64,000 bases of DNA from Myxococcales bacterium (GTDB taxonomy: Bacteria > Myxococcota_A > Polyangia > Haliangiales > Haliangiaceae): assembly GCA_016716835.1 (NCBI GenBank), contig JADJUW010000003.1, positions 48,534 through 112,533 of the forward strand. The letters run 5' to 3'. The translations under genes were made by a program, and so were the position numbers. Under the pieces are notes generated by a model that was given only the letters and a program-made list of their open reading frames with translations, was not told where the DNA came from and did no database searches. Positions within the stretch are counted from its first letter, which is position 1. Each line of letters opens with the position of its first letter. Positions 4,863 to 56,808 of the stretch are shown one piece after another.

Positions 4863-4896
4863 GCGGTACTACCGCTCGGCCGCCCTGGCGGTGAAC

Positions 4897-5378: not shown

Positions 5379-5499
5379 GGTTTCAAGGGTACCATGGAAA
5401 ACCTTGGTTTTAAAAGGTTTGAATTTGGGTTCTCGTTAGATGAAACGCTTGTCGTGCCATCCGGGGCACAAATGGTGGTGTTTGACCGCGGAATTTACG

Positions 5500-6096: not shown

Positions 6097-6136
6097 AGGA
6101 TTTCTCGACTCGTAGTTGATGACGTAGAAGGCTCGA

Positions 6137-6739: not shown

Positions 6740-6827
6740 GGTGAGGACATAAGCAATCGGTGTGCCACGCCCGGCACGGCGTTTTGGCGCGCTGGAACGC
6801 CGGAGTCTAGGCAGGTTCGCCAGGTTG

Positions 6828-6849
6828 TAAGGGGACGTACAACCCCTTA
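6828..6849 (-). terminator. Possible hairpin terminator downstream of thrC
   Basis: 7-bp stem TAAGGGG/CCCCTTA with an 8-nt loop, 30 nt after the thrC stop. There is no clear U-tract, hence the low confidence. Confidence 0.3.
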
Positions 6850-6878
6850 AGCCGCGACGCAGGTGGCATCTGCGGTGG

Positions 6879-14644: not shown

Positions 14645-16042
14645 CTAAGCAAATAACAGACCAATGTCGAGCGGACGCAAGTATACGAATTTGCGAGCGA
14701 TGGCCGCACCGTGGTGGCCAGTTGACCCGCCGATAGTGGGGAGGCGTGGCCCTAGCGCTTCGCGGCGCCGCGCGCGATCACGCCGCTGGGACGCTTGGGT
14801 AGCTGCACTTTGTCCGGACGACCGGCGTTGGCACCGCCTCGATGCCCCATCAGCGCGAGCACCAGAAAAGGCAGACCAATCATGGCCATTGGCGCCCACA
14901 GGCTGCCGCAGCACGCCGACCACGGCCAGCCATGCGACCGCCGCCAATACGCCAACCTTGATGCGCGCGTAGAGTTGCTTGCGCGGCCACGCGAGGAAAA
15001 GGATAGCGACATCAATGGGCCAATACATCAAGGCCACCTCATTGATGCGCAGGCTGGGAATCGCGCTGATCGCGACGAGCGTCCAGATCACAAGCCCCAT
15101 GAAAAGCGTTGGCACCATCGCGATGGCGAGCGCCGTGCGCGTAAGGCGTCGCCGCCACAGCGCGAGCGCGATCAGCGCGGCGGCGCCGAGGCCAATCAAC
15201 GCCACGACCTCGCGACCCTTGCTCCCCTCAGAGGGAAACGGGGGCCCGCGACGCTGATAGATTAGTTCGGGCACGACGCCGAGCCGAGTCGCGACGTTGA
15301 TGCGCACTTCGTCAGGGAGAAACATTTTTTCGTAGAGCGTCGGCGGCACATCGATGTCGCGCCCGACGGCGAAATCGGAAATCGCGAGCAGCGGAGGAAA
15401 CTCGGCCAGCCCGCTGTAGCCGAGCTCGCGAAAGGTGCGGAGGTCGGCAGGATCGGGCTTAGCTGCGTCCGCGCGCAGCGCGCCGGCAAAGGTGTCGTCG
15501 ATCATGTCGCGCAGCCGCGTCGTGCAGTTGTCAAAGAAGTGATCGTATTCGTAGTAGCGGCGGCTTTCATGGAGGTCGCCCCACAGCTTGGCCTCGAGCG
15601 CGCGCGCCTGCGCTGGCGTGGTTGGCAAGATCTGGCGCCAAATGGTGCGGTCTTCCCAAGTGTAGAAGCGAAGGGTTTCTTCCAGCGCCGCGGGTTCGAC
15701 CCAAAATTTTGTCGTGCCGCGCAAGAAGCCCCACACCAGCCCCTTGGCGTTGGCAAAATCAGTGACGCCGTAGTTTAAACAAACGTCGCCGGGGGCGTGT
15801 TCATAGTGCAGGCACAAGGCGGCGTGGCCATACTTTTCAAAAATCACCGGGCCGCGCTCGAAGGTGTAGAGGTCAACCCGCGGTGGCTCGGCGCTGGGTG
15901 GAATTTGCCCGTTGTAGTCGGCGGCGCGCAGCTGCCGCGGCTGGCCAAGCGCGGTCGTGGCGGTTGCGATCGCAAAGCCGAGCGCGAGCGCAGCGGCGTA
16001 CCATAAGCGTCCCGACGGGGGCAGGCAGCGCAGGCGAGTCAT
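14645..16042 (-). CDS. DUF4105 / Lnb-like membrane protein (periplasmic N-domain plus multi-TM C-domain); 3' end probably frameshifted
   Basis: Signal peptide, then 'FEKYGHAALCL...', 'FWVEPA' and 'YEYDHFFDNCTTRLRD' motifs as I recall for DUF4105, then at least 4 TM helices. The last ~85 codons are low-GC3 Arg/Ser/Gln junk, while another frame (14752-14889) encodes a clean TM helix (see findings). Confidence 0.65.
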   Translation of the reverse strand: MTRLRCLPPSGRLWYAAALALGFAIATATTALGQPRQLRAADYNGQIPPSAEPPRVDLYTFERGPVIFEKYGHAALCLHYEHAPGDVCLNYGVTDFANAKGLVWGFLRGTTKFWVEPAALEETLRFYTWEDRTIWRQILPTTPAQARALEAKLWGDLHESRRYYEYDHFFDNCTTRLRDMIDDTFAGALRADAAKPDPADLRTFRELGYSGLAEFPPLLAISDFAVGRDIDVPPTLYEKMFLPDEVRINVATRLGVVPELIYQRRGPPFPSEGSKGREVVALIGLGAAALIALALWRRRLTRTALAIAMVPTLFMGLVIWTLVAISAIPSLRINEVALMYWPIDVAILFLAWPRKQLYARIKVGVLAAVAWLAVVGVLRQPVGANGHDWSAFSGARADGASRRCQRRSSGQSAATQASQRRDRARRREALGPRLPTIGGSTGHHGAAIARKFVYLRPLDIGLLFA

Positions 16043-18339
16043 GGCCCCGGCGTCTCTTTCGTGGTGTCGGCGTCGCGGCCCATCGCCGGGCTGGCATTGG
16101 CGCTGACCGCCGGCTTCTTAAACTGCGCGGGATCAACCGCGACGTTCCACTCGAACTTGGAAATCACCAGTGTCACCGTCTCGTCGCCGCCCAGCGTGGT
16201 GCGCTTGTGCGCGACCAGGATGCCGCCTATTGGCTTATAGTCCTCAAGGCTAATCGTGCCAACGCCGGCGCCCTCGGGAAATGCGACCATGGTGACGAGC
16301 TTGGTCTTGTCGTCGACAAACAGGGTCGCGGTGAAGCGCTTGTCGGGTGAGGTGACGTTGACCTTGGTCAGCGTCGTGCCGTCGACCTTTTCTTGGCCAA
16401 CCCAGCGCACCTGCGCCCCCGGCGCGAGATGGCGCAGCAAGATGAAATCGGGATCAAGCCAACGCTCGCGTTCGACCGTGTCGGCGTCGATCGCCGCGAC
16501 GTCGACCAGGCCCTTGGGCGTATCTTGCCACGCGCCGCCGGCGCCCATCGCATAGCTGATGCGAATCGACTTGTTGAGCACGAGGTCGACGCGCGAGTCG
16601 CTCGGCAGCGACCACAGGCGGGTGATGTCGACGTCGACCACCTGCGACGATCGCTTCATCGCGCCGCTGGCGGTCAGGCGCAGGGATTTGCGCGCGGCCA
16701 GCGCGGCGCGGCCGCCTTTCTTGGCGAGCGCCGCGTCGAGCAGGGCCCGCGCCTTGGCGGCGAGCTTGGGGTCTTCGGGCAGCTCACGCCTCGCTACCGG
16801 CGTTACGACATCGCGGATGGAGGCGCGCTCGTAAGTGAGCTTTAGCTTATCGAGCTGCGGCGCGATCTTCGCGGCATCGCCGACAATCGCGATCGCGATG
16901 CTGGTGGTACCAAGGAGCTCGGCCGCCGCGCCGGCGACGCTGGCTTGATCCGACTTGTCGAGCACCACGGGAAAATTTTCGACATACGCGGCATCGAAGT
17001 CATGCAACTCCGCGGCGAGCAGGCTGCTGGCAATGGCGCTCGCGGTCTCAAAGCGTAGTCCATAGCTGCCACCGAGGTAGGCGACGGCCTCGTCCACCTC
17101 TCCTGCGCTTGGGCCCTCGCTCTGCATCTTCTTGATCTCGCGAAGCAACATGGTTAGCGTGGCCGCTGCCTCGCTGGTGCGGGTCGCCGCGGTTGCAACC
17201 CACGCGCCGCGCTCGCGGTTGCGATCGAAGGTCGTTGTTGCGGAGGGTGCGCCGCCGCCGGCGCCGTCACTGCGCAGGCTGCGGATCAGGCGTGCGCCCG
17301 CGCCACCGCCGAGCACGTGGTTCCACACCAAGGTGTCAAAGAAGCGAGAATCCTGGTGCGCGATGCCGGGTAGCGCCACGGCGATTTGTGCCTGCGCCTG
17401 ACCTGGCATGTCGATTAGTCGCAGGGTGCGGTTCGCAATGGGGCTCGCCGCAGTTGCTGGCGCTACCGCGCGGCCTTGGCCTCGCCATCCAGCGAATTGT
17501 GCGGTGATGGTGCGCTTAGCCGAGGGCGCGGCGACATTGCCGACCACGACCAGCGTCGCACGCTCCGGGCGATTGGCGGCGGCATGCCACGCGCGCAAGT
17601 CGCCCTGCGAAATGCTGCGCAGGCTCGCCATGCTCATCACGCGCCCGCGGGGATGATCGTTGCTCCACAAGAGATTCTGAGCATGCACGGCGGCCATCGC
17701 CGCGGCACTCTCCTCGGTCGCCTGCACTTGGCCCGCGAGGCGCTCGCCAACGGACGGCATTTCCGCCGGCGCAAACGCGGGCGCGGCGAGGGCCTCATGC
17801 ATCAACGAGAGGCAGGTCGCGAGGTGGGCGGCCTGCGCGTCGCATTTTAAAACTGTTGCCTCGTAGCTGGCATCGCTGGCCAGCGAACCTCCCGTCGCCG
17901 CAATCGCGCGCGCGAAGGCCGCCGCGTCTCGCTTGGTCGTACCGCGCAGCAACATTTGCGCGACGAACGCGGCGAGGCCTGGTTGATCTGCGGGGTCGGC
18001 GCTCCAGCCATTGGCAATCGCCAACTGGACGCTGAGCACCGGCGCATCCGCCTTGGCGACGATCAGGACCTTCATGCCGTTTGGCAGCTTAAACTGCGTG
18101 ATTGGCGGCAATGCCACCGCGGCTAGCGGTGCGAACTCGGGTGGCTTGATTAGATCTTCACGCCCCGCCCATGGGTCATCGGCCGCAACCGCGACGGCAT
18201 CGCTCACGCCCACGCTCGGCAGGCTGAGCCCTTTTGAGGCGACGGGTTTGGCACACGCTACAAACAGCAAGGCCGCGGCGCCGCAAGCGAGCAGCGCGAT
18301 CGAGGCGCGCAAATTATTATGGTTGGGCGATCGTTTCAT
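16039..18339 (-). CDS. M16-family peptidase-like protein lacking the zinc motif, with a ~230-aa C-terminal extension
   Basis: Signal/lipoprotein-like N-terminus ('LLFVACAKP'). M16 two-lobe layout, but I see no HxxEH. There are extra beta-rich residues after ~aa 520. 4-nt overlaps with both neighbours (18336-18339 and 16039-16042). Confidence 0.75.
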   Translation of the reverse strand: MKRSPNHNNLRASIALLACGAAALLFVACAKPVASKGLSLPSVGVSDAVAVAADDPWAGREDLIKPPEFAPLAAVALPPITQFKLPNGMKVLIVAKADAPVLSVQLAIANGWSADPADQPGLAAFVAQMLLRGTTKRDAAAFARAIAATGGSLASDASYEATVLKCDAQAAHLATCLSLMHEALAAPAFAPAEMPSVGERLAGQVQATEESAAAMAAVHAQNLLWSNDHPRGRVMSMASLRSISQGDLRAWHAAANRPERATLVVVGNVAAPSAKRTITAQFAGWRGQGRAVAPATAASPIANRTLRLIDMPGQAQAQIAVALPGIAHQDSRFFDTLVWNHVLGGGAGARLIRSLRSDGAGGGAPSATTTFDRNRERGAWVATAATRTSEAAATLTMLLREIKKMQSEGPSAGEVDEAVAYLGGSYGLRFETASAIASSLLAAELHDFDAAYVENFPVVLDKSDQASVAGAAAELLGTTSIAIAIVGDAAKIAPQLDKLKLTYERASIRDVVTPVARRELPEDPKLAAKARALLDAALAKKGGRAALAARKSLRLTASGAMKRSSQVVDVDITRLWSLPSDSRVDLVLNKSIRISYAMGAGGAWQDTPKGLVDVAAIDADTVERERWLDPDFILLRHLAPGAQVRWVGQEKVDGTTLTKVNVTSPDKRFTATLFVDDKTKLVTMVAFPEGAGVGTISLEDYKPIGGILVAHKRTTLGGDETVTLVISKFEWNVAVDPAQFKKPAVSANASPAMGRDADTTKETPGP

Positions 18340-19751
18340 GGCGTAGCCTTCTTCGGCGTTGAGAGGGGGGTGACAGCCGCAGCGGGCGAGGTCGACGGCG
18401 GAACATAGGCAATCGTCGCGCGCTGGGCGTCGAGGTGCGTCGCCGCCACGCGCCGAATGTCGGCGGCGCTGACCCGCGCCATTTGGGTGAGCTGCGTCGC
18501 GAACGCCGCGGGGTCGCCGTTGACGATCCAGCTATTGCCAAGCAGCTGGGCCAGGTCGCTGCTGCGTTCGAGCTGTCGCATCGCGCCATCGATTAGCCGC
18601 GCCTTCACCAAGGCAAGGTCCTTCTCGTCGACGTCACGCGAGGCCAAGCGAGCCACCTCGTCTAAGATCGCGGCCTGCACCGCCTCGCGGCTCGCAGGAT
18701 CGAGAAAGGCGGCAAAGGCGATGAGCTGGCTTGGGTGTTCGCGCACCAAGATAGGCGATGAGGTTTGAAACGCCAACGGCCCTTTGGTCGCGCCATCGGC
18801 CCGGCTCATGCGGCGCGCAAGTCGCGAAGCCGGCCCATCGCCGAGCAGCGCCGAGATTACGCGCAGCGGCGCAATGTCGGCGTGACCTCCGCGCGGAATG
18901 GGAAATCCAACCATGATCATGCCCACCGCGCTGGCCTCGGCAGTGACGGTGCGCGGCGCCGTTTGCGCCGGCTCGAGGGCGGCGTCAGCGGGACGCGGAG
19001 GCTGGCCTGCCGCCGCGATCGGACCAAAAAATTTCGTCGCGCCGGCAACCACCTCGGCGAGCGTCGTGTCGCCGACGACCACGAGCAGCGCGTTGTTAGG
19101 TTGATAGTACGCGTCGTAAAACGCGCGCAAGGTCGCCTCGTCAATCGCGTCGACATCGGCGGCGCTACCGTCGGCCGTCCACGCATAAGGATGGCTGCGA
19201 AAGGCGGTGGCCAAAAAGGTGAGCAGGCCCTTGGTCACCGGCGCTGCCAGCAACTGGCGAAGCTCGCGCTGCATCGCGCCGCGCGCGGCCGCAAGCGCCT
19301 CAGGCTGAAACACGAGCCCGCGCATGCGGTCGGCCTCGAGCTGCAGCACCGTCGCGAGATACGCCTTAGGCACGACGTTTTGGAAATAGGTTGCGTCCTC
19401 GGTGGTCGTGGCGCCGACGTAGCCACCGACGCGATTGAGCATGCGCGCGTGATCGTCGGGACGCACGCCCGTCGAGCCCATGAACATGAGATGCTCAAAC
19501 ATGTGGGCGGTACCGCGCCGCGTTTTGGACTCGTCCTTTGAGCCGACCTTGTACCAAATCTGGACGGCGACGAGCGGTGCGCTCGTGCGCGTCACCACGA
19601 CCACCTGCAGGCCATTGGGCAGCTCGGCGGTTTGAACCTCGGCGCTAGGCAGCGCCACATCGGCAAGCGCCAAGCGCGTTCCTGTGGCGGTGGTGGACGC
19701 CACCATGATTGACGCGGCGAACAGTACTTGGCATCCAAGGCGAGTTGGCAT
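18336..19751 (-). CDS. M16-family zinc peptidase (pitrilysin/insulinase-like), active subunit
   Basis: Inverted zinc motif 'GTAHMFEHLMFMGS' (HxxEH). Trimmed to ATG 19751, which is followed by a hydrophobic signal sequence. Confidence 0.85.
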   Translation of the reverse strand: MPTRLGCQVLFAASIMVASTTATGTRLALADVALPSAEVQTAELPNGLQVVVVTRTSAPLVAVQIWYKVGSKDESKTRRGTAHMFEHLMFMGSTGVRPDDHARMLNRVGGYVGATTTEDATYFQNVVPKAYLATVLQLEADRMRGLVFQPEALAAARGAMQRELRQLLAAPVTKGLLTFLATAFRSHPYAWTADGSAADVDAIDEATLRAFYDAYYQPNNALLVVVGDTTLAEVVAGATKFFGPIAAAGQPPRPADAALEPAQTAPRTVTAEASAVGMIMVGFPIPRGGHADIAPLRVISALLGDGPASRLARRMSRADGATKGPLAFQTSSPILVREHPSQLIAFAAFLDPASREAVQAAILDEVARLASRDVDEKDLALVKARLIDGAMRQLERSSDLAQLLGNSWIVNGDPAAFATQLTQMARVSAADIRRVAATHLDAQRATIAYVPPSTSPAAAVTPLSTPKKATP

Positions 19752-19969
19752 AGATGCGCGGCACCCTACCGCCCGCCCAGTGGGGTCGCGACACGGGCTG
19801 GGTGCTTTTGTCGATCTCCGGCGCAATATATCGTAACTATCCTTAATTATTACAAGACAGTTCTCGCTGCACTGTATTTATGGCCCTTGACGGAAATACA
19901 AAATGCGCTACAAAGAAGGCTCTGGGATCTTGGCGAATTCGCTAGGAGATTGGGCAAGGAGGAGGCGTC

Positions 19970-22208: not shown

Positions 22209-22988
22209 ATGGCGACCGAGCATCCGGCGGCGCCAACCTTGGCCACACTCGATGGCGTCGTCGTGCACTACGGCCGCCGCCTCGCGGTCGACCAGCTCTC
22301 GCTGCGGATTTGCGGCGGCGAGCGGATCGCGCTGCTTGGCGCCAATGGCGCGGGCAAGACCACGACGCTGCTCGCCTTGACCGGCGGCGTGGCGCCCTCG
22401 GCGGGCACCGTCAACGTCATGGGAGGCGAGATGGCCGGCCGCGGCCGCGCCGCCACCAGCGTGCGGCATCTCGCCCACGTCGGGTTTGCTGACCAGCCGC
22501 CATCGCTTTACGAATTTTTGACCGTCACCGAGCACGTGCGATTTGTCGCCGAAACCAGGGGCCTGCCCGACAATAGCGAAACCACGCAGGTCGTGGCCGC
22601 ACTGCTCGCCGATCTCGGGATTGAGCCGTACGCGCATCGCCCGTGCCGCGAGCTTTCTTTCGGGCTTCGCCAGCGCGTCTCGCTCGCGGCGGCATTGGTT
22701 GGTCCGGTCAAGCTGCTGTTGCTTGATGAAAGCGTCAACGGCCTCGATCCGCACGCGATGAAGCGCGCCCTGCACGCGGTGATGCGCCAGGCCTCGGCGC
22801 CCGACACCGCGCTCATTTTTTCGACGCATATGCTCGAGCTGGCCGAAGAAATTTGCACGCGCGCCATCATGATGGAAGACGGCAAGCTGATTGCGGACAT
22901 GTCGCGCGAGACGTGGCAGCTCACGTACGGAAATTTGCGCGCGGCGTACGTCGCGCATGTCGCCGACGGCAAGGCGCGCGAGGCGTGA
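22209..22988 (+). CDS. ABC transporter ATP-binding protein
   Basis: Walker A 'GANGAGKTT', signature 'LSFGLRQRVSLAAAL', Walker B 'LLLLDES'. Confidence 0.9.
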   Translation: MATEHPAAPTLATLDGVVVHYGRRLAVDQLSLRICGGERIALLGANGAGKTTTLLALTGGVAPSAGTVNVMGGEMAGRGRAATSVRHLAHVGFADQPPSLYEFLTVTEHVRFVAETRGLPDNSETTQVVAALLADLGIEPYAHRPCRELSFGLRQRVSLAAALVGPVKLLLLDESVNGLDPHAMKRALHAVMRQASAPDTALIFSTHMLELAEEICTRAIMMEDGKLIADMSRETWQLTYGNLRAAYVAHVADGKAREA

Positions 22989-36473: not shown

Positions 36474-36579
36474 TTTTATGATGCCACTTATGCAATGCGT
36501 CAAGCAATTCAATGAACAAAGCCTCGGACTTCACCGTCTGACAGGCAGTAAGCTCAAGTCCGTTATCAGGAGGAAGATT

Positions 36580-38016
36580 GTGATTACGCATATTTCCAGG
36601 TTCACAGCACGCTTTTTAGCCACCGCTTTGCTCGTCGGTTCGACCGTGGTTGGCCACGTCTCGGCGCAACCAGGAGGCCGGCGCTCGCCGCCACCTCCAC
36701 CGCCCGGAGGGAGCCCGTCGCCGCAGTCGTCGCAGGTTCCGCCGGCGCCAACTTTGGTAGCTCCGCCACAGGCGGCAACGTATCCAACCACCGCGCCGCC
36801 GGCACCGCAGGCGGAACGAGTTCGCGGCGCCAAGCGCAAGGGGCACATTTGGGTCCCAGGCAATTGGTCGTGGCAAAACGGTCGGTGGACCTGGACCGCC
36901 GGTCGATGGGAGCGCGTCGTTCCAGATCAACGATTCGTCGAAGGACGTTGGGAAAACCAAAACGGCCAATGGGTGTGGATCCCGGGCCGTTGGCAGCAAG
37001 TGCTGCGCGAGCCAAACGTTGCGCCGCCTCCGCCAAAAGACCCAACGCCGGCGCAAGTACTCGCGGGCAAAGTGTGGTTTTCGGGTCGCTGGGAATGGAA
37101 AAATGGCGAGTGGTCGTGGAACCCCGGTCGGTGGCAAGATGTCAAACGCGGCTACCGGTGGGTCGACGGTCGCTGGGAGCAACGCGGCGCCTCGTGGGCG
37201 TGGGTCGATGGCCGTTGGGAAGAATTGCCCAAGGAACCAAACATAGCGCCGCCTGCGCCGCGTGATCCCGCGCCAACCGAGCTGCGTCGTGGCAACAAGG
37301 TGTGGGTCGCCGGTAAATGGGAATGGAAATATGGCCAGTGGGAATGGACGCCAGGCCGCTGGGAGCGCGAACGCCGCGGTTCCGTTTGGACAGAAGGCCG
37401 TTGGGAGCAACGCGGCAACACGTGGACGTGGGTGCCGGGCACCTGGACCGCCTTGCCCGCCGAGCCCAATGTAGCACCCCCGCCGCCGCGCGATACGCGC
37501 CCAGCGCGCGGTGCTCGCGGCCAGGTTTGGGTCGCCGGTAAATGGGAATGGAAGTTTGGCGAATGGAAATGGACGCCTGGTCGCTGGCAGCGCGAGCAAC
37601 GCGGCAAGCAATGGCGTGATGGCCGTTGGGAAAACCAAAATGGCCGTTGGGTATGGGTTCCTGGTGCGTGGGAAGCCGCCGCTCCGGCGCCAACGCCGAC
37701 GCTGGTGCCGCCGCCGCAACCGGCGACGCATCAGCAGCCGCATCATCAACAACCGCCGCAACCGCAGCCTGCGCCACAACCACAACCTCCAGTTGTCAGC
37801 GGTCCAACCGCGCCGCCACCAGCGCCCGTGGCCGAAAGACCAGGCACCGCGCGACCGGGCTATTTTTGGCAACCAGGGCGCTACGTTTGGCAAGACGGCC
37901 AATATTCGTGGCGCGCTGGCAGCTGGCAGAAATCGCAAGCTAGCAAGACATGGACGCCTGGCCGCTGGGAGCTGCGCGGCAGCGTCTACGTGTGGATCGA
38001 CGGCAGCTGGAACTAG
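36580..38016 (+). CDS. Secreted WxxGxW (YXWGXW)-repeat protein
   Basis: GTG 36580 follows 'CAGGAGGAAG'. Signal peptide, a Pro-rich linker, then many 'W(V/T)PG(R/K)WEW..G.W.W' units arranged in 75-aa (225-nt) super-repeats separated by 'EPN(V/I)APPPP(R/K)D'. Confidence 0.8.
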   Translation: MITHISRFTARFLATALLVGSTVVGHVSAQPGGRRSPPPPPPGGSPSPQSSQVPPAPTLVAPPQAATYPTTAPPAPQAERVRGAKRKGHIWVPGNWSWQNGRWTWTAGRWERVVPDQRFVEGRWENQNGQWVWIPGRWQQVLREPNVAPPPPKDPTPAQVLAGKVWFSGRWEWKNGEWSWNPGRWQDVKRGYRWVDGRWEQRGASWAWVDGRWEELPKEPNIAPPAPRDPAPTELRRGNKVWVAGKWEWKYGQWEWTPGRWERERRGSVWTEGRWEQRGNTWTWVPGTWTALPAEPNVAPPPPRDTRPARGARGQVWVAGKWEWKFGEWKWTPGRWQREQRGKQWRDGRWENQNGRWVWVPGAWEAAAPAPTPTLVPPPQPATHQQPHHQQPPQPQPAPQPQPPVVSGPTAPPPAPVAERPGTARPGYFWQPGRYVWQDGQYSWRAGSWQKSQASKTWTPGRWELRGSVYVWIDGSWN

Positions 38017-38125
38017 ACCCGGAACGCACCGTATGGGAAATTTTGCGCGTACGGCTTCGCTCGGTCGGTCACATACCAAGCGTATGCTCCCTCTCTCGCT
38101 GCAGGCGTGCGCGCAAACTTCCTCC

Positions 38126-38144
38126 ATACGGATGCATTCCGTAT
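38126..38144. terminator. Possible hairpin in convergent intergenic region
   Basis: ATACGGA-tgcat-TCCGTAT lies between the repeat-protein stop (38016) and the epimerase stop (38164). It has a weak T-rich tail on the plus strand only. Confidence 0.25.
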
Positions 38145-38163
38145 AGAAATATTGTTCGGACTA

Positions 38164-43612: not shown

Positions 43613-43744
43613 CGCCTCATTCTACGGCATTTGCGCGGTTTTTCCTATGGCGGTGTGGAAGTGATCCCGCGCAAGCGCGTCGCGCGACGTGGGCACACTC
43701 CGCTGGCCCGCCGCGGCGCCGGCACGTCGGACGCGCGCGACAAG

Positions 43745-44323
43745 CTAATAGGTACACCCTTCGATGCCATTGTTGCAGGGCCGACACTCGCCTTTGATCA
43801 AGTCCTCGTCAAACTCGAATTCGATCGTGGCTTCAAGCTGCCCGGCCGGCGAGACCGCCGCCAGTTCCACGGCGCCCACAATGTCAAACGCGCGGTACGT
43901 TACGGGCGCGCCATCATAGAAGGTCTCACCTTCCTGCACTGCAAACGCGTAAATGGTTGTGGAGGCGGCGGCATCAACTGACCAGATCTCTTCGCAATAC
44001 GCGCGAATGTCCGAATTGCAGAGCGTCACGGAAGCGTACCCAAGCGGGTAAGAAAAGACGCCAGGCTTCCAGCCTGAACGAAACCTGTACATTAGGTCGA
44101 GCGGTGCACCATCGGCGCGAATGTAGTAGGTCATCGATTGATGGTCTGTGTCGTCACCGTCAGCCCAATAGCCGACCTCTGATTCAAACGAACTCGACAC
44201 CCCGTCGACTAATTGACTGCCGGCGGCGGGGTTTGCGGTTCGAATGATTTCAAATTCGCATTCTTTGCCGCACCCGGCTATCCCGTGGAATAACAGCAAC
44301 CCTGCTACGATGCGGCTAGCCAT
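43745..44323 (-). CDS. Hypothetical lipoprotein
   Basis: Lipobox 'GIAGC', 192 aa, several Cys, no recognisable motif. Confidence 0.6.
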   Translation of the reverse strand: MASRIVAGLLLFHGIAGCGKECEFEIIRTANPAAGSQLVDGVSSSFESEVGYWADGDDTDHQSMTYYIRADGAPLDLMYRFRSGWKPGVFSYPLGYASVTLCNSDIRAYCEEIWSVDAAASTTIYAFAVQEGETFYDGAPVTYRAFDIVGAVELAAVSPAGQLEATIEFEFDEDLIKGECRPCNNGIEGCTY

Positions 44324-44421
44324 GTTAGCAGGCTAGCTGAAACACCTGGCGGTGTGCGGTACTTGCCACGCCTTGCCAACGATTGCCAGGCCCCGTTGGC
44401 GGGCGCTTGAGACGATCACTG

Positions 44422-45342
44422 TTAAGGCGCGCGCTTGGGAATGACCTTGCGCACCGCAGCCTTCGCCACCGCGGCGCCAGCGCGCAGGGCGAACGCGACG
44501 TCGCGCGGACGCCGCGTGTGATACAAGCTCCACGCCCAGTGCTCGGCGGCGGTGCGCACCTCGCCACCACCCGCGAGGCCTCGCGCAAAACGGGCGCGGG
44601 CGCGGGCGAGCGCACAGTGGCGCACGGCGGCAGGTAGCTCGTCGCGATACTCATCAAAAAAACGTTCCATGACGAATAAGTAATCCTTGTACGTGCCGGC
44701 CACCGCGTTGAGCCCATCTTCGAGGCCCCGCGCGGCGACGGTGAGCGGCGCCTCGATTACGCCGATTGGATAGAGGCGCGCGACGCGCAGCATGTAGTCG
44801 ATGTCTTCGGCCGTGCGCAGCTGAGAATCAAAACCGCCGAGCTCTTCGTAGACGCAACGCCGCATCGCCACCGACGACGGCACCATCGCCGGATGCTGTG
44901 CGATGGTGTGCAGCGCAAACCCATCGCTGGGAATGGTATCTCGTCGCCGCAGCGTGTCCTGCGCACCGTTAATGTTGCGGCGCAAGACGTCGGTGACGAC
45001 CATGCCGAGCTCGGGGTGGTCGGTGAGCTTGTCGACCTGCGCCGCGGTCTTCTCGGGCAACCAAAGATCATCGGAATCCAAGAACGTCAGCACGCTGCCG
45101 GAGGCCTCGCCAAGCCCTCGATTGCGCGCCGCCGACACTCCCGCATTGGCCTGATGAACGTAGCGCACGCCCGGAAACTCGCGCGCGACGACGGCACGCG
45201 TGTCATCGGTTGAGCCATCGTCGACCACGATGGTCTCGATGAGCTCGTGGGGATAGGTCTGCGCCGCCACTGAGGCCAGCGCGCGTCGCAATAACCCGGC
45301 GCGGTTGAAGCTGGGGATGATGACGCTCACCAGTGGCCGCAT
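44422..45342 (-). CDS. Glycosyltransferase family 2
   Basis: 'VSVIIPSFNRAGLL', 'VVDDGSTDDT' and 'FLDSDDLW' (DxD). Confidence 0.9.
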   Translation of the reverse strand: MRPLVSVIIPSFNRAGLLRRALASVAAQTYPHELIETIVVDDGSTDDTRAVVAREFPGVRYVHQANAGVSAARNRGLGEASGSVLTFLDSDDLWLPEKTAAQVDKLTDHPELGMVVTDVLRRNINGAQDTLRRRDTIPSDGFALHTIAQHPAMVPSSVAMRRCVYEELGGFDSQLRTAEDIDYMLRVARLYPIGVIEAPLTVAARGLEDGLNAVAGTYKDYLFVMERFFDEYRDELPAAVRHCALARARARFARGLAGGGEVRTAAEHWAWSLYHTRRPRDVAFALRAGAAVAKAAVRKVIPKRAP

Positions 45343-47885: not shown

Positions 47886-49288
47886 ATGTCAGACACGCGC
47901 ATGAGCCGACGCAAGATCATTCTAGGCGGCCTGGGCGCCGGCGCCGTGGTGGCGGGGGGCGCGGCGTGGTCGCTGCGGCGCAAAATTACGTCTAAGCTGG
48001 CGCGCTATACCGAGGCTTCGTCGTTTGCGGCGACGCCGGCCGCGCCCGTGCACGATGCGGCGCGCGATGCCACCAAGCTGTATGTGGCGCAGGGCGGTGG
48101 CAGCCCCGCCGAGCGCATCGATGGCGTCTTTGCCAAGCTGGGCGGCGCGGCGGCGTTGGTTGGGGTCGATGACGTCGTCATCATCAAGGTTGCCGCGCAG
48201 TGGTGGAACCAGGGCATGACCAATGTCGCGGCGGTAAGGCGCGCGATTGAGCACGTGCTGGAAATTCCGGGCTTTCGCGGCGACGTAATCGTGTTCGAGA
48301 ACACACATTTTCGTTTCCTCGATCGCGCCGATGACGACCCTGCGCGCGGCCTGACGCGGGCGTGGACGCATCCAAGCGTGCGCAACGTCGACGTTAATGG
48401 CTGGAGCTCGCTGGGAGATTTGATCCCCACTTTTCGGCGCTTAACGCCCGCGTGGGCTTTGTCGGCCTCGTCGATGCGGGCCTATCCTCGCTCCAAGATG
48501 ACACCTGGCACGACGCCGCGCATGCGCACGGGCACTACGGCGGCGATGGCCGCGGGCCGCTGACGACGGGCGATGCGCGTGACGGCTACTTTTGGGATTT
48601 CTCGCAGGTGTTTCGCCTGAGGCGCAGCCTGGTCGACGACGCGCAGACGCCGCTGACGTGGCCGCGCTTCACGGACGCCCGCAGCGGCCTCACGATCGAT
48701 CTGCGCGACGGCGTGTTTCGTCGCGAGGGCGGCAAATTGGTCAAGGTCGATCGCAAGCTGACCTTTATCAACATGACGACGGGCAACGAGCACGGCTCGA
48801 CTGGCTACACCGGCGCGGTGAAGTCGGCGATGGGGCTGGTCGACATGAGCGCCGGCGCGCTCGGCACGCATCCGCTCGCGCAAGGCTATCAGTCGGTGCA
48901 CTACTTTGGCTCGTTCGGCAAGCGGCGGCCCAGCTGGCGCATGGCGGGGCCGCTCGCCGCGTTCTGTGCATCTGTCCGGAAACCGGACCTTTACATTACG
49001 GTCTCGGAATGGACCGCCGCGATGCCGGCGAAGGGCTGGCCAGACAGCGAGGACCTGCGCCATGCCGAGCTCAGCGCGCACCACACCAAGACCATCGTCG
49101 CGGGCACCGACCCAGTTGCCGTCGACGCCTGGTGTATCCGCAATTTGATGATGCCGATCCGCGGCCTCAATTTTGACGCCTACTACAACCTCGATTCGGC
49201 CGAGGCCAAGGCGACCAAGTTCCTGCGGTATTACAAAGAAGTCGCCGGCGTCGGCGCGCTCGATCCTGCGCTTGTCACGATCGTCTAG
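47886..49288 (+). pseudogene. Tat-signal DUF362-family protein split by a -1 frameshift (or assembly indel)
   Basis: ORFs 47886-48563 and 48452-49288 are two halves of one protein. The N-half has 'SRRKIILGG' (twin-Arg) and 'VVIIKVAAQWWN...VIVFEN'. The C-half has 'IVAGTDPVAVDAWCIRNLM'. The frames switch near C4/T4 runs at 48425-48434. 1403 nt plus 1 equals 468 codons. Confidence 0.65.
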
Positions 49289-49349
49289 GATCCGCGCCTT
49301 TTCCCCTACGCGTCAGCCAGGTTGGTACGTCACCGCAACAAAGCGTTTG

Positions 49350-49556
49350 CTAGACAGTTTCCGGGCAGTCATCGCACGTGCATGGCTCATAGGGGCAGGT
49401 AACCGTGACGCACCGAGCGTAGGTAGGGCACCCAATGGTGCAAGCAGATGTGCCGTTAATGCACGGGCTAAGGGTCGAATCAGCGGCTCCCGAAAATTTT
49501 GCCAAGGTTGTGATCGAAAGACGTTTGAGCGCGAGCTTCTTCGAGGTCTGTTTCAT
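49350..49556 (-). CDS. Small Cys/Thr-rich peptide with double-glycine-type leader (candidate RiPP/bacteriocin precursor)
   Basis: 68 aa: MKQTSKKLALKRLSITTLAKFSGA / ADSTLSPCINGTSACTIGCPTYARCVTVTCPYEPCTCDDCPETV. The leader resembles the 'KKLxLxKxxIxxL...G(G/A)' type. The core has 8 Cys and 11 Ser/Thr in 44 residues. No SD is seen, and codon usage is less GC3-biased than in neighbours. Confidence 0.5.
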   Translation of the reverse strand: MKQTSKKLALKRLSITTLAKFSGAADSTLSPCINGTSACTIGCPTYARCVTVTCPYEPCTCDDCPETV

Positions 49557-49633
49557 AATGCGCGGGACACTAGCATCGCCGAGAAAACCACGTCAACGAA
49601 TTATCTCGGGACTGGGCCAACTTCCTGAAAGAA

Positions 49634-51904
49634 CTAAGGCGCGACCTCGGCATCGCAAAGGTGGCTGCCAGTTGCTAACAGGGCCGCAGCCGCCTGCGCG
49701 ATGCGCGGCGCAAGATACGTATGTCGTGGCCGCGCTTGCGCGTTGCGCACCGCGAGCGAAATCGCCTTGCCGGTGCCAACCAAGATGACCAGTTGCTTGC
49801 CGCGAGTCATCGCGGTGTAGAGCAGGCTCTTGCTCAGCATCATGAAATGCTGCGTCACCACGGGCATGACAACGGCCGGATATTCCGAGCCCTGGCTCTT
49901 ATGCACGCTGACCGCATAGGCCAGCGCGAGCTGGTCGAGCTCGGCGCGATCGTAGTCGGCGATGCGGCCGTCGGTAAAGATGACGCGTGCCTGGCCGGCA
50001 TCGGCGTCGATGCGATCGATGTAGCCGATGTCGCCGTTGAAGACACCCTTGTCGTAGTCGTTCTTGAGCTGCATCACCTTGTCGCCGGTGCGCAACGTGG
50101 TGTCGCCGCGGACCAGCTCGGCCTTGGCCGTGGCGGCCGGGTTGAGCGTGGTCTGGAGCGCCTTGTTGAGCGCCGCGGTGCCGACCTCGCCCCGGTGCAT
50201 GGGCGTCAGCACCTGGATGTCGGCGGTCGGCGAGAAGCCAAACTTGCCGGGAATGCGCTGCGTGACCAATTCGACGATGGTGTCGAGCACCGCGGCGGGC
50301 TCGGGACGATTAATAAAATACATGTCGTTGCCCGGGGTCTGCGGGTCGACAAATTCAGGCATTTGGCCGCCGTTGACGCGGTGGGCGTTGGCGACGATTT
50401 GGCTCGCGGCGGCCTGGCGAAAAATCTCGGTGAGCCGCACCACTACCGCTGCCTCGCTGGCAATGACATCGGCCAAGATGGCGCCGGGCCCGACCGAGGG
50501 CAGCTGGTCGATGTCGCCGACCAAGATGAGCTGCGCCGCGGGCGGGATGGCGGCGAGCAGTCCGGCGAACACAAAAATATCGATCATGCTCGCCTCGTCG
50601 ACGATCACCACGTCGGCCTCGAGCGGGCGGTCCTTGTTGCGGGCAAAGCTGCCGTTCTGCGGCGTGTATTCGAGCAGGCGATGCAAGGTCGCGGCGGTTT
50701 GGCCCGTGCTCTCGGAAAGCCGCAAGGCCGCGCGCCCGGTTGGCGCGCCCAGCGCGAGGCGGCGAAACTGCTTGGTCGCGAGGTGGCAAATTGCCTTGAC
50801 GATCGTCGTCTTGCCAACGCCAGGGCCGCCGGTGATTACGACAAGCTTTTCGTTGGAGGCCGCCTCCACCGCCCGGCGCTGTTGGCCGGCAAGCTGCACC
50901 CCCGCGGCCGCTTCAAAGGCGGCGATGGCCTCGGCGGCATCCACGGGCTTGCGACTCGTCGCGGTATTCGCGAGGACCGCCACCGCCTGCGCAGCCGCGA
51001 CCTCGGCCTCGTGCGCGGCGGGCAGTGACACGCACCAACCCCGATCGCCCAGCAGCTCCTCGACGAGCAGCTTAGTCGCCACGAGCGTTTGCATGGCCGG
51101 CATCAATTTGTCGACGTCCACCACCAGCAGCTCGCGGCCGCGCTCGAGCAACTCGGCGCGCGGCAGGTGCGCATGGCCATCCTCGAGCGATTCGCCGACC
51201 ACGTGCAAGAGCCCCGCCTCGAGGCGGGCCGGCGCGTCCTTGGCAAGTCCCATCTTTTGCGCGATGCCATCCGCGGTGCGAAAGCCAATGCCCCAGATGT
51301 CGATCGCCAGCCGATACGGATTGGCGCGCACGATCGCCATTGCCTCGCGGCCGTATTGCTTGATGATGCGGCCGGCAAACGCCGCCGACACGCCGTGGCC
51401 GCGCAAAAACACCATGACGTCTTGCACGTGGTGGTGAGTCTGCCAGGCCTCGGCAATGCTCGCCGCGCGCGCCGCGCCAATCCCCGAAACCTCGGTCAGC
51501 CGCGCTGGCTGGTTGCCGATGACCTCGAGCGTCTGAAAGCCAAAGGCCTCCACCAGACGACGCGCCATCTCGCCGCCGATACCTGGGATCAGCCCCGAGC
51601 CGAGAAACTTTTCGATGCCGTCAAGGGTTTCGGGCGCGCGCGGGTGGGCGCTCCCGACCTTGAGTTGTCGGCCGAATTTCTTGTCCGTGATCCATTCGCC
51701 GCGCACCAGCCAGCTCGAGCCCTCGGTCATGCCGACGAGCTGGCCGACGATGGTCACCAGGCCACTGGCGAGTTGTCCGGTTTTCGTGCTCTGCGGCGCG
51801 GGCAGCAGGCGCGCCACCGCGAACTGCGAGTCCTCGTTGCGATACACGATCTTGGCGATCGTGCCTTCCAGCGTGACTTGGTTGGGCGCAGCGTCGGTTT
51901 CCAT
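49634..51904 (-). CDS. recD2: RecD2-type SF1B ATP-dependent DNA helicase
   Basis: 756 aa. Walker A 'VITGGPGVGKTT', Walker B 'VVIVDEASMID', 'LILVGDIDQLPSVGPG', C-terminal 'AVSVHKSQGSEYPAVV', and an N-terminal HhH/OB-like region. Confidence 0.92.
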   Translation of the reverse strand: METDAAPNQVTLEGTIAKIVYRNEDSQFAVARLLPAPQSTKTGQLASGLVTIVGQLVGMTEGSSWLVRGEWITDKKFGRQLKVGSAHPRAPETLDGIEKFLGSGLIPGIGGEMARRLVEAFGFQTLEVIGNQPARLTEVSGIGAARAASIAEAWQTHHHVQDVMVFLRGHGVSAAFAGRIIKQYGREAMAIVRANPYRLAIDIWGIGFRTADGIAQKMGLAKDAPARLEAGLLHVVGESLEDGHAHLPRAELLERGRELLVVDVDKLMPAMQTLVATKLLVEELLGDRGWCVSLPAAHEAEVAAAQAVAVLANTATSRKPVDAAEAIAAFEAAAGVQLAGQQRRAVEAASNEKLVVITGGPGVGKTTIVKAICHLATKQFRRLALGAPTGRAALRLSESTGQTAATLHRLLEYTPQNGSFARNKDRPLEADVVIVDEASMIDIFVFAGLLAAIPPAAQLILVGDIDQLPSVGPGAILADVIASEAAVVVRLTEIFRQAAASQIVANAHRVNGGQMPEFVDPQTPGNDMYFINRPEPAAVLDTIVELVTQRIPGKFGFSPTADIQVLTPMHRGEVGTAALNKALQTTLNPAATAKAELVRGDTTLRTGDKVMQLKNDYDKGVFNGDIGYIDRIDADAGQARVIFTDGRIADYDRAELDQLALAYAVSVHKSQGSEYPAVVMPVVTQHFMMLSKSLLYTAMTRGKQLVILVGTGKAISLAVRNAQARPRHTYLAPRIAQAAAALLATGSHLCDAEVAP

Positions 51905-54036: not shown

Positions 54037-56808
54037 ATGAAGAAACCCTTTTTTCGGCGCCATGGGCAGCCTCGTGTCGCAGGCGTTGCCATCTTGCTGG
54101 CGACCGCGGTGGCGGTCGGTTCGTGCGCCCCTAGCAATCCAAAGTTCACGTTTACCTACGCCGAAAAGCGCGGCGTGCTCGAGAGCAACGGCCTGCGCTT
54201 TGTCATCATCCCCGACAAGACCACCGAGTTGGTCGAGGTAGACGTCCGTTATGACGTCGGCTCGCGCAACGACCCCAAGGGCATGGCGGGCCTGGCACAC
54301 CTCGTCGAGCACATGATGTTTCAGACGCGCCCCGATGGCGCAGATTCGCCGCCGCTGTTTCAGTCCATTGCCACGTTGTCGTCGGGCTTTAACGCCTACA
54401 CCAACTGGGACACTACCCACTACATGACCCAGGGCCGCAAGGAGCTGGTCTCGGCCTTGCTCAAAATCGAAGCGCTGCGCCTGTACTGGGGCTGCAAGAC
54501 CACCTCGGTTGAGGAGTTCGAGCGCGAGCGCGAGGTCGTGCGCAACGAAATTCGCCAACGCGGCGGCTCGCCCGAAGGGCTCATCATGCCGCTGACGCTT
54601 GCGGCCATCTATCCCGAGGGCCACCCGTATCGCGAATCAATCGGCGGCAACGACGCGCAGCTTACAAACATCACCATGCCCGCCGTGTGCGAGTTCATGG
54701 AGAAATATTATACTCCGTCCAACGCGACGATCGTCATCGCGGGCAACGTCGATGTTGACGAGACGGTGGGCTTTATCCGCAAGTACTTCGAAAAGATTCC
54801 CGCGCGCAAGCCGGCGCCGCCGATTGCGGTGCCCGTCGTGGCTGCCTCGCCGGGCAAGGTGACTCACAAGCTCGACACCGAGCGCAACCTCGTCGCCTTT
54901 GCGTGGCCTCTGCCCAACGGCACCACCGCCGAGGGCGAGGACGTCATGTTTGGTATCAACAGCGCGTTCTTTGGCGTGGCACGCAAGGCACAAGAGTACG
55001 ACTTTGCATCGGGCGTCTACCCGATGTTCCTTGGCGGCAAGTTGGCGCCTATGTTCGCGATCGTCGTCGAGCTCAAGAGCGCCGGGCGCCTCGGCGAAGC
55101 CACGGAGTTCGCGCGCAAGGCGGCGGCGTCGGCCTATCGCGGCTTCGACGAAGGCTCCTGGCAGCAAATCCAAGACATGAAAGCCCGCGCCAAAGCGGGC
55201 GTCGTGCAAAATCTGGAAGAGCTGGGTAGCCGCACCAACACAGTGGCCGAAATCATCCAGTTCAACAAGCAAATCAACTTCGGCTCGACCGAGGAATATC
55301 TGTTCGATGAGTTCAAGCGCATCGAGCGCTTCGACGGCGGCCGCGTGGCCTCGGCGATCAAGAAATACCTCGACCCCGACAAGATGAAGGTCGTGGTGTT
55401 CGAAGCGACCAAAGAGGGCCTCAAGGGCGACAAGCGCTCGGAGCTAAAGTTCACCACCAAGTCGCACGACAAGCGCGTGGTCACCGACTACGATCCCGCC
55501 GAAGCCAAGCGCCCGATCAAGGTTGCGACCGAGCTCAAGCTCTTGGCCGGCGCCGAGCGCTTTACGCTAAAAAACGGCATGCGCGTGGTGCTGCTGCCAG
55601 TTGAGGCGATGCCGGTGGTGTCGGCGAGCTTGACGTTTGATGTCGGCGACGCGCATGCGGCACCGCTGTTGGCGGATTCGGCCGCGCGCTTCCTGCGCCT
55701 GCCGATGGACGCCGAGGCGATTTATGCGGCCGGCATCGACATCGGTTGCGAATCGGATGGTGATCACACGGTGTGCCGCTCGGGGGGGATCAATATCTAC
55801 CTCGACGTGATCATCAATGGCCTCGAGCGCATCGTCAAGGCGGGGGAGTACAACCAAGAGAGCATCGATCGCGCGCTCAAGAGCCGGCGCGACTCGTTTA
55901 CCCGGGCCTCAACGCAAGAGGAAACCGAAATGCAGCGCCAGCTATTTACGGCCCTCTACGGAGCCGAGCATCCGTACACGGTGAACGGCGTGGTCATGCC
56001 CAAAAATCTCTCGGGAATCGACAAGACCTCGCTGATGAAGTTCAAAGAAAGGCACTACACCGCGGCCAATGCCACGCTCATCGTGACCGGCCGCTTTGAG
56101 CCCAAGCAGGCCAAGCGCATCATTTCCAAGGCGTTTAAGCGCTGGGGCACGGGCGGCAAAGATGCGCCCATCGCGCCGACTATGCGCACGCGCACCGCGC
56201 CCGAGTTCGTCGGCGTGATTGGCAAGGAGTCGCCGCAGCTGACGGTCAACATTGCCTACCCAGCGCCCGCGGGTGTCGATGGCCTTGGCGCGGCGCGCGC
56301 CGTGTTGGCTCGCATGATCAATAATCGCCTCGGCGATATTCGTACCCGCCTTGGTTCAACCTATGGCGTTTACGGCTACAAGGCGACCGCGATTGGGCCG
56401 ACCGCCTACTTTATGGGTGGCACGGTGGATGCGGCGCGCGGTGGCGAATCACTCGCGGCGATGCGGGACGCCGTTGACTCCTTGCGCCGCGGCGAAAATT
56501 TCGACGTTGAATTTGTTCGCGCGCGACGCGAGCTGATCAATGGCCTGCTGTCGGAGTCGACGGTGTCTTCCGTGTTGCTGGGGCGCCTAGGCTTTGTTTC
56601 ACGCTTCAACCTCGGCGTCGGCTACTACAATACTTACCTGCAGCAGGTGGCGGCCATGTCACCCGCGCAGGTCAAGGCATTGATCGTGAGCGATCTCAAG
56701 CGAGAGCACGAAGTCATCGTGCTGCTCGCCGACAAGGCGACGCTTGAGGCAGCGTTTAAGGGCGCTGGCATCACCGATATGAAATTCGTCGAACCGTCGT
56801 ACGAGTAA
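54037..56808 (+). CDS. Large secreted M16-family zinc peptidase (two M16 units in one chain)
   Basis: Signal/lipoprotein-like N-terminus ('AVGSCAPS'), 'GLAHLVEHMMFQ' (HxxEH). 923 aa corresponds to four M16 half-domains. Confidence 0.88.
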   Translation: MKKPFFRRHGQPRVAGVAILLATAVAVGSCAPSNPKFTFTYAEKRGVLESNGLRFVIIPDKTTELVEVDVRYDVGSRNDPKGMAGLAHLVEHMMFQTRPDGADSPPLFQSIATLSSGFNAYTNWDTTHYMTQGRKELVSALLKIEALRLYWGCKTTSVEEFEREREVVRNEIRQRGGSPEGLIMPLTLAAIYPEGHPYRESIGGNDAQLTNITMPAVCEFMEKYYTPSNATIVIAGNVDVDETVGFIRKYFEKIPARKPAPPIAVPVVAASPGKVTHKLDTERNLVAFAWPLPNGTTAEGEDVMFGINSAFFGVARKAQEYDFASGVYPMFLGGKLAPMFAIVVELKSAGRLGEATEFARKAAASAYRGFDEGSWQQIQDMKARAKAGVVQNLEELGSRTNTVAEIIQFNKQINFGSTEEYLFDEFKRIERFDGGRVASAIKKYLDPDKMKVVVFEATKEGLKGDKRSELKFTTKSHDKRVVTDYDPAEAKRPIKVATELKLLAGAERFTLKNGMRVVLLPVEAMPVVSASLTFDVGDAHAAPLLADSAARFLRLPMDAEAIYAAGIDIGCESDGDHTVCRSGGINIYLDVIINGLERIVKAGEYNQESIDRALKSRRDSFTRASTQEETEMQRQLFTALYGAEHPYTVNGVVMPKNLSGIDKTSLMKFKERHYTAANATLIVTGRFEPKQAKRIISKAFKRWGTGGKDAPIAPTMRTRTAPEFVGVIGKESPQLTVNIAYPAPAGVDGLGAARAVLARMINNRLGDIRTRLGSTYGVYGYKATAIGPTAYFMGGTVDAARGGESLAAMRDAVDSLRRGENFDVEFVRARRELINGLLSESTVSSVLLGRLGFVSRFNLGVGYYNTYLQQVAAMSPAQVKALIVSDLKREHEVIVLLADKATLEAAFKGAGITDMKFVEPSYE

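Follow-up and report, generated by a model that had tools for sequence, protein, structure and literature searches.

A selectively maintained gene for a Cys-rich 68-residue peptide in a myxobacterium: a candidate stand-alone precursor with a double-glycine-type leader

Peptides with double-glycine-type leaders, as in the ComC/ComA and LahA/LahT systems, class II lanthipeptides, and class II bacteriocins, are handled by the C39 peptidase domain of peptidase-containing ATP-binding cassette (ABC) transporters (PCATs), which recognizes hydrophobic residues at positions -4, -7, and -12 (and -15) ahead of a GG, GA, or GS pair (PMC10885120). Within Myxococcota, the MfuA/MfuT system of Myxococcus fulvus is a known case of class II lanthipeptide processing by a PCAT (PMC10885120). 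The genes for double-glycine (C39) peptidases often lie apart from those of their substrates (PMC8939145), and precursors of the prochlorosin type are found in strains or loci that have no synthetase next to them; among 12 marine Synechococcus strains with procA/syncA-type precursor genes, 9 encode a LanM synthetase and 3 do not (PMC10783134). Here, we analyzed a 64,000-nucleotide stretch of a Myxococcales bacterium genome (assembly GCA_016716835.1, contig JADJUW010000003.1, positions 48,534 to 112,533; hereafter the window) that contains an unannotated open reading frame (ORF) for a 68-residue, Cys-rich peptide at 49350-49556 on the minus strand. We found this ORF to be a genuine gene, and its product is probably a new, lineage-restricted precursor of the double-glycine type, of a known kind but assigned to no named family because every family-model test failed.

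Like the double-glycine/PCAT systems, the peptide appears to combine a leader of ~24 residues bearing hydrophobic residues at -4, -7, -12, and -15 with a small-residue pair at the junction, no Sec signal, and a Cys/Ser/Thr-rich core, and in those systems too the precursor may be encoded away from its transporter. Unlike them, the peptide has an unconserved Gly at -2, a strongly basic leader with no Glu at -8, no match to a hidden Markov model, and no PCAT gene within 64 kb. Prochlorosins and synechococsins, the class II lanthipeptides with Nif11 leaders that are matured in trans by one promiscuous ProcM-type enzyme, resemble the peptide in their housekeeping contexts at a distance from a synthetase or with none as a neighbor, in a GG-type cleavage site, in a core of Cys and Ser/Thr, and in their occurrence in variable genome regions. 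However, prochlorosin leaders are of the Nif11 type and exceed 60 residues, with many paralogues per genome and hypervariable cores, whereas the peptide has a short, basic leader, a single copy in 64 kb, and a core and leader that are about equally conserved (76% and 79%). The SCIFF/ranthipeptide and Bacteroidetes GG-type targets of radical S-adenosylmethionine (rSAM) enzymes (TIGR03973, TIGR04149, and PF14406) share with it a short Lys-rich leader of the form K-K-L-x-L-x-K-x-x-I-x-x-L, a small-residue pair, and a multi-Cys core with interspersed Thr/Ser, but none of these models matched at E <= 10, no rSAM/SPASM maturase is adjacent although these targets usually have one beside them, and they come from another phylum.

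The peptide gene runs from an ATG at 49556-49554 to a TAG at 49352-49350 (207 nt, from the ORF listing) and encodes MKQTSKKLALKRLSITTLAKFSGAADSTLSPCINGTSACTIGCPTYARCVTVTCPYEPCTCDDCPETV. It lies 77 nt downstream of the RecD2 gene on the same strand (49634-51904, minus), and a convergent DUF362 gene on the plus strand ends 61 nt away (at 49288), with both neighbors identified by Pfam. GC content around the ORF is 0.54-0.57 versus 0.636 for the whole window. Our analysis started from a preliminary description made from the letters alone, whose coordinates, strand, and translation we re-derived exactly. Its placement of the ORF in a lower-GC gap between recD2 and the convergent gene was likewise borne out, as were the Cys (8) and Ser/Thr (11) counts that it gave for the final 44 residues and its Lys-rich N terminus (5 Lys and 1 Arg in the first 24 residues, with a terminal Gly-Ala). 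Homologues of RecD2 and DUF362 assign the window to a Kofleriaceae-like member of Myxococcota. The DUF362 fragment in the window is 100% identical to MBK9073095.1, and the 756-residue RecD2 shares a 90% cluster with MBK9073096.1 (756 residues). Since these two flanking proteins carry consecutive accessions on the same 256-kb contig, the peptide gene was left unannotated by the Prokaryotic Genome Annotation Pipeline (PGAP) and GenBank, and an exact look-up in a 153-billion-gene index did not recover its product.

The closest relatives of the locus were three Logan contigs, L001 (SRR14092365), L143 (SRR14092366), and L002 (SRR31893877), which have the same gene order and a RecD2 97% identical to that of the window. 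At the equivalent site, all three independent assemblies contain an identical orthologous ORF of 67 residues (MKQTSKKLALKRLSIASIAKFSAGAQSTLSPCVTGTSDCTTGCPSYAGCVTNTCPYEPCTCEDCPHS), where the gene caller of the Logan contigs called no gene. In this second allele, start and frame are unchanged, no Cys (of 8) or Pro (of 5) is lost, and 10 Ser/Thr positions are kept. Across 65 aligned codons, 8 first, 6 second, and 39 third codon positions distinguish the two alleles, and the proportions of differing nonsynonymous and synonymous sites were 0.115 (pN) and 0.76 (pS), with synonymous sites saturated. The two peptides are 76% identical in amino acid sequence, yet 62% of fourfold sites differ. An antisense frame with coinciding third positions could mimic such a signal, but in each allele this frame is interrupted by stops, and the sense frame alone is open in both. 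The third-position bias is equally strong over codons 34-65, in which the antisense frame is closed (3, 4, and 19 differences at the three positions). The region of the peptide gene gave no Rfam match and no tRNA, and a noncoding RNA is thus not indicated. The codon-position bias, the closed mimic frame, and the lack of an RNA match together establish the ORF as a real protein-coding gene kept by purifying selection. The preliminary description had named loss of the reading frame or of the Cys positions in relatives as an argument against the gene, and both are preserved in the three assemblies, which represent one second allele.

On the opposite strand, an ORF of 117 residues (49435-49788, plus), which shares its third codon positions with the peptide gene, is open across the 5' half of the peptide gene in both alleles, and its 69% identity mimics coding conservation. 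In either allele this frame meets stops further on, the boundaries of the ORF also vary, and we rejected it as a true gene.

Upstream of the peptide gene, we detected a promoter-like element (49567-49596, minus) with a -35 sequence of TTGACG (49596-49591), an 18-nt spacer, and an extended -10 sequence of TGcTAGTGT (49575-49567). The TTGAC and a block of GATGCTAG(T/G)GTCCCGCGCA (49577-49559) are conserved between the alleles, whereas the sequence between them has diverged with its length kept. The ATG begins 10 nt past the -10 element, implying a 5' untranslated region of ~3-4 nt, and no Shine-Dalgarno sequence precedes it. Because the block is conserved while the spacer has diverged, we infer a promoter and a transcription start that would yield a nearly leaderless mRNA; the element was missed by a scan for the strict sigma-70 consensus. 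A terminator-like GC hairpin with a T-rich tail (49243-49256, minus; a consensus match only) lies 94 nt past the peptide stop within the 3' end of the convergent DUF362 gene, and the scanned region held two terminator-like sites versus 1.0 expected.

Comparison of the alleles, together with the C39/PCAT recognition rule (PMC10885120), delimited residues 1-24 of the peptide (MKQTSKKLALKRLSITTLAKFSGA; 49485-49556, minus) as a putative leader. Residues 1-15 are identical between the alleles although synonymous sites are randomized, which argues for the N terminus acting as a recognition element. With cleavage set after residue 24, both alleles place hydrophobic residues at each position of the rule, with F21 at -4, L/I18 at -7, L13 at -12, and L10 at -15. 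Among shuffles of residues 2-30 that preserved composition, only 0.04-0.05% did so, or 0.3% when -15 was dropped. The PCAT-type leader proposed earlier therefore gains support, since both alleles fit the spacing far above shuffled N termini. We also agree that the N terminus is not a Sec signal. A Sec h-region comprises at least ~10 uncharged residues (with an added lipobox in lipoproteins), whereas in the window allele the longest stretch of uncharged residues among the first 30 is 7 and the maximum 10-residue mean Kyte-Doolittle value is 0.98. The LSPC in the peptide is no lipobox, and no lipoprotein signal was found.

The putative core, residues 25-68 (49353-49484, minus), has a Cys framework of C-x6-C-x3-C-x5-C-x4-C-x4-C-x-C-x2-C and contains 8 Cys, 5 Pro, and 11 Ser/Thr. 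Residues 1-24 carry a net charge of +6, and the remaining residues one of -4. The two alleles agree at every Cys and Pro of the core (8 and 5, respectively) and at its two Tyr and two Gly, and the Ser/Thr positions are kept with a single Thr-to-Ser swap (T45S). Nine of the 10 core substitutions fall outside Cys, Ser, and Thr, roughly one per inter-Cys loop, and these include radical changes such as A38D, I41T, R48G, and V52N. By a hypergeometric estimate, the probability that at most 1 of 10 substitutions would fall on the 18 Cys/Ser/Thr positions of 41 was ~0.014, and the corresponding value for Cys alone was 0.08. Identity between the alleles was 76% in the core and 79% in the leader. These results uphold the Cys and Ser/Thr richness reported at the outset, with Cys and Ser/Thr being the conserved core positions across the two alleles. 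Ser or Thr residues stand 1 to 5 residues N-terminal of Cys in S30-C32, T36/S37-C39, T40-C43, T/S45-C49, T51/T53-C54, and T60-C61/C64, and these candidate pairs are conserved in both alleles, an arrangement that is lanthionine compatible but not diagnostic. The core pattern fits a cross-linked scaffold held by thioethers, azoles, or disulfides, among which the pattern does not distinguish. No sequence relative of the peptide was found in the PDB, where the best match was to Nab2 zinc fingers (E 7.2).

We give about an even chance to the reading that the gene product is a stand-alone precursor from which an exported, cross-linked, Cys-rich peptide is made, with its double-glycine-type leader handled in trans. 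The gene would be transcribed from its own promoter as a nearly leaderless mRNA, and the basic 24-residue N terminus would act as the double-glycine-type leader. A PCAT-type ABC exporter, its gene lying elsewhere in the genome, would use its C39 domain to recognize the hydrophobic stripe at -4, -7, -12, and -15 and cut after the small-residue pair (G23-A24 in the window), freeing a 44-residue acidic core. The eight Cys may be joined as thioethers to Ser/Thr by lanthionine- or rSAM-type chemistry, as azoles, or as four disulfides. Export, the cleavage site, and any modification are what we infer from the leader fit and the core pattern. Of the stand-alone precursor envisaged in the preliminary description, the genuine coding gene and the leader fit stand, whereas its status as the precursor of a peptide synthesized ribosomally and modified post-translationally (RiPP) is a suggestion from sequence, with no relative found beside a maturation enzyme.

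Several observations weigh against an exported double-glycine-type precursor. The leader carries a charge of +6 without Glu or Asp, and typical double-glycine leaders are not so basic or acid-free. An acidic core is also unusual in a membrane-active bacteriocin. The alpha-helical hydrophobic moment of the N terminus is low, and we could not sustain its earlier characterization as amphipathic. The junction pair is G23-A24 in the window and A23-G24 in the second allele, making Gly at -2 not invariant, and an alternative G24-A25 one residue on in the second allele breaks the hydrophobic register; the GA site described at first is thus present in the window allele but not kept in register. No leader or precursor model in NCBIfam or Pfam matched above its cut-off within E <= 10, and none reached even E = 0.1, among models that covered gallidermin/nisin, Bacteroidetes-type, and bacteriocin signal families as well as TIGR04149, PF14406, and TIGR03973. 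The best NCBIfam match was TIGR03731 (gallidermin/nisin; E 0.42, 10.7 bits versus a cut-off of 29.3), and the best Pfam match, to a DM domain (E 0.69, below cut-off), was noise. Across the protein, metagenome, genome, plasmid, and viral collections searched, we found no homologue and hence no co-occurrence with any enzyme. In addition, Pfam searches of the ~50 ORFs of the window detected no C39/PCAT, LanB/C/M/KC, rSAM-SPASM, YcaO, MNIO, or ATP-grasp gene. Finally, the conservation statistics rest on two alleles only, a thin basis on which the overall case is suggestive.

The Pfam searches confirmed an earlier remark that the window holds no maturation genes. No lanthipeptide dehydratase or cyclase (LanB plus LanC, LanM, LanKC, or LanL) and no Radical_SAM or SPASM domain occurs among the ORFs of the window, the peptide itself gave no TIGR03973-type match, and the sole ABC ATPase (22209-22988) is without a C39 domain. 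To call the locus unusual on this ground was an overstatement, as double-glycine peptidases are often unlinked to their precursors (PMC8939145) and LanM is lacking in 3 of the 12 marine Synechococcus strains with precursor genes (PMC10783134).

A different explanation for the absence of nearby maturation genes is that neither cleavage nor export takes place. The peptide would then be a small cytoplasmic metal-binding or redox protein, metallothionein- or chaperone-like, with Cys coordinating Zn, Cu, or Fe-S and a basic N terminus binding nucleic acid, membrane, or a partner protein. We consider this unlikely. An orphan gene among housekeeping genes with 8 of 8 Cys invariant would suit such a protein, the split between a +6 leader and a -4 core fits a two-part intracellular protein equally well, and the C-terminal CTCDDC/CTCEDC resembles the CxC/CxxC motifs of metallothioneins, but the peptide has a single CxxC with no paired CxxC...CxxC and no His ligands, and the five invariant Pro and ten conserved Ser/Thr are not needed for metal binding. 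Furthermore, metal binding gives no reason for the N-terminal -4/-7/-12/-15 spacing fit, no metallothionein, zinc-ribbon, or other Pfam or NCBIfam model matched at E <= 10 beyond noise, and a single-sequence AlphaFold model was unreliable (predicted local distance difference test score of 58) and lends no fold support. Bacterial metallothioneins and methanobactin-type precursors (MbnA, with a core of CGSCYPCSCM) do resemble the peptide in being small and Cys rich, with CxC/CxxC-type motifs and Pro/Tyr between Cys, and MbnA also has a basic leader. They differ in that we found no BmtA/SmtA-type match and no MbnB/C (MNIO) genes nearby, and the core of the peptide is much longer, with Cys making up 18% of it.

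We have still less confidence in a RiPP precursor that bypasses PCATs, in which residues 1-15 would be recognized in trans by an enzyme containing a RiPP recognition element or by another enzyme and a general protease, such as one of this genome's M16 or M1 peptidases, would take off the leader. The complete conservation of residues 1-15 is in keeping with this, the GA versus AG pair suggests that Gly at -2 may not matter, and M16 proteases remove leaders in some RiPP pathways. The window contains three M16 genes and one M1 gene, but the nearest M16 (54037-56808) starts with a lipoprotein-type signal and is conserved with its housekeeping neighborhood (L001 has a gene at the equivalent site) without a peptide-specific link. 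Under this explanation, moreover, the spacing-rule fit becomes a coincidence, and no modifying enzyme was found in the ORFs of the window. That the ORF is no functional gene at all, a chance ORF or a gene remnant in a fast-evolving spacer, is effectively refuted. It was called by neither PGAP nor the gene caller of the Logan contigs, and it has atypical GC content at third codon positions (GC3), no Shine-Dalgarno sequence, and no homologues, but the 8/6/39 pattern and 76% amino acid identity with 62% of fourfold sites different are impossible without selection on the frame. The preservation of start, frame, and length and the promoter-like block conserved amid a diverged spacer likewise speak against it.

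Searches for further relatives of the peptide returned no credible match. A word-indexed database of 5.8 billion proteins yielded no candidate homologue, and phmmer against 1.84 billion representatives gave three matches, two of which we read as unrelated repeat proteins and the third of which was a 14-stretch repeat match. The patterns MKQTSKKL and CVT[VN]TCPY were not found in JGI metagenomes, nor RecD2 8-mers in GTDB species genomes. A degenerate pattern, KKLxLKRL[S]IxxL, gave 17 matches in the GTDB species genomes, about the chance number, with none in Myxococcota and no peptide-like ORF. No relative of the peptide was detected in plasmids by tblastn or in viral contigs, and no paralogue occurs in the window or related contigs. 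A metagenome scan with the bare eight-Cys framework was swamped by (TGY)n microsatellites and uninformative, none of the matches listed being peptide-like. Loci with a RecD2 ~60% identical to that of the window (L003-L005) or a DUF362 protein ~66% identical (L148 and L149) have different neighbors and no peptide-like ORF. Because synteny is gone and no similar ORF is seen at ~60-66% identity of the flanking proteins, the gene may be restricted to a narrow lineage; alternatively, its relatives may be systematically uncalled and too divergent for exact-pattern scans.

The peptide gene lies in a divergence island of ~480 bp (49244-49720, not assigned to a strand) that takes in the gene, the short spacer on either side, and the very 3' ends of RecD2 and DUF362. 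In 100-nt windows over 12 kb of shared synteny, DNA identity to L001 was 67-76% within the island versus mostly 81-98% (mean ~88%) elsewhere. Fourfold-site divergence was 0.62 in the peptide gene versus 0.24-0.35 in eight flanking genes. The 39 third-position differences of the peptide gene exceeded the maximum of 31 among 2,864 flanking 65-codon windows (0 of 2,864 reached 39). Since nonsynonymous (dN) and synonymous (dS) divergence are raised by about the same factor and omega (dN/dS) is near 0.04, like that of RecD2, the island suggests that the alleles split longer ago, not that the protein evolves faster. Recombinational replacement from a more distant lineage or long-maintained alleles are possible causes, between which two alleles cannot decide. 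The atypical GC3 of the peptide gene (0.64 versus 0.73-0.84) points the same way.

The RecD2 C terminus shows how far the island extends, because the last dozen or so residues (tail within 49634-49720, minus) are wholly different in the window (ATGSHLCDAEVAP) and L001 (TSGVGAEPADVG) while identity over the remaining protein is 97%.

The island and the atypical codon usage would fit a horizontally exchanged accessory cassette, and such cassettes are common among bacteriocin-like loci. An extended form of this idea, which we regard as improbable, is that the locus is a polymorphic, horizontally exchanged cassette of Kofleriaceae-like myxobacteria encoding a new family of leader-dependent, cross-linked secreted peptides. 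These would be made from leaderless mRNA and matured in trans, with alleles under balancing selection or introgression, and might serve, say, in kin discrimination or as a signal in competition. This idea would account for an island ~4 times more diverged than the surrounding genome around a protein under purifying selection, as the alleles would be maintained or swapped.

If the double-glycine-type reading holds, the locus is a conserved, selected small RiPP-like precursor gene missed by PGAP and by metagenome gene callers in high-GC myxobacteria. Such small genes, when missed by gene callers, are therefore invisible to protein-database mining, and cluster-centered tools of the antiSMASH type presumably would not flag this one, as no enzyme is adjacent. 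Export and modification, if true, would make the peptide the first of a new family of precursors whose double-glycine-type leader is unusually basic, and one more example of trans maturation beyond the cyanobacteria. With the divergence island, allele replacement at a peptide locus can be tested on a small scale.

By Pfam, the other genes of the window include threonine/methionine biosynthesis and acyl-CoA dehydrogenase genes for amino acid and fatty acid metabolism, the three M16 and one M1 peptidases, and envelope and transport genes for TolB, MotA/TolQ/ExbB-family and ExbD/TolR-family proteins, Opp permeases, and an ordinary ABC ATPase. Also present are a polysaccharide cluster with glycosyltransferases, Wzy, deacetylases, and DUF362, and genes for RecD2, agmatine deiminase, an N-carbamoylputrescine-amidase-like hydrolase, and an extracytoplasmic function sigma factor. 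The M16 (pitrilysin/insulinase-type) genes comprise a tandem pair of 496 and 766 residues (16039-19826, minus), which adjoins a Lnb_N-domain protein, and a lipoprotein-like protein of 923 residues (54037-56808, plus), 4.5 kb from the peptide gene; we found no specific link of the M16 genes to the peptide.

The DUF362 gene next to the peptide gene (47886-49288, plus) is broken into overlapping ORFs at 47886-48563 and 48452-49288 by a 1-nt deletion near 48428 (GTG-GGG versus GTGAGGG in the intact 457-residue gene of L001), and GenBank annotates only a 278-residue C-terminal piece (MBK9073095.1). The split reflects an indel introduced by the assembly or else a genuine pseudogene. Within the polysaccharide cluster, a second hypervariable patch (window 43671-44444 versus L001 9859-11121) has a DNA identity of ~45-65% with many gaps, versus ~88% in its flanks. 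On the window side, it contains a lipoprotein-like ORF of 192 residues (43745-44323, minus) and, on the L001 side, an unrelated gene of 420 residues, neither with a Pfam match.

Elsewhere, a lower-GC stretch at 4660-6879, where the GC3 of the ORFs read was 0.53-0.71, contains a 90-residue ORF (4897-5169) and two tandem paralogous ORFs of ~200 residues (5500-6096 and 6137-6739, both minus). The paralogues have signal-peptide-like starts, both contain AAHASRSKTPL.AEFKAAQKR, and neither has a Pfam match; the stretch may be an acquired island. At 36478-38160, ORFs of >500 residues occupy both strands of one 1.6-kb segment (36478-38016 plus; 36616-38127/36619-38160 minus). The minus-strand ORF at 36619-38160 has no Pfam match, and neither strand of this segment shows a clear GC3 frame bias.

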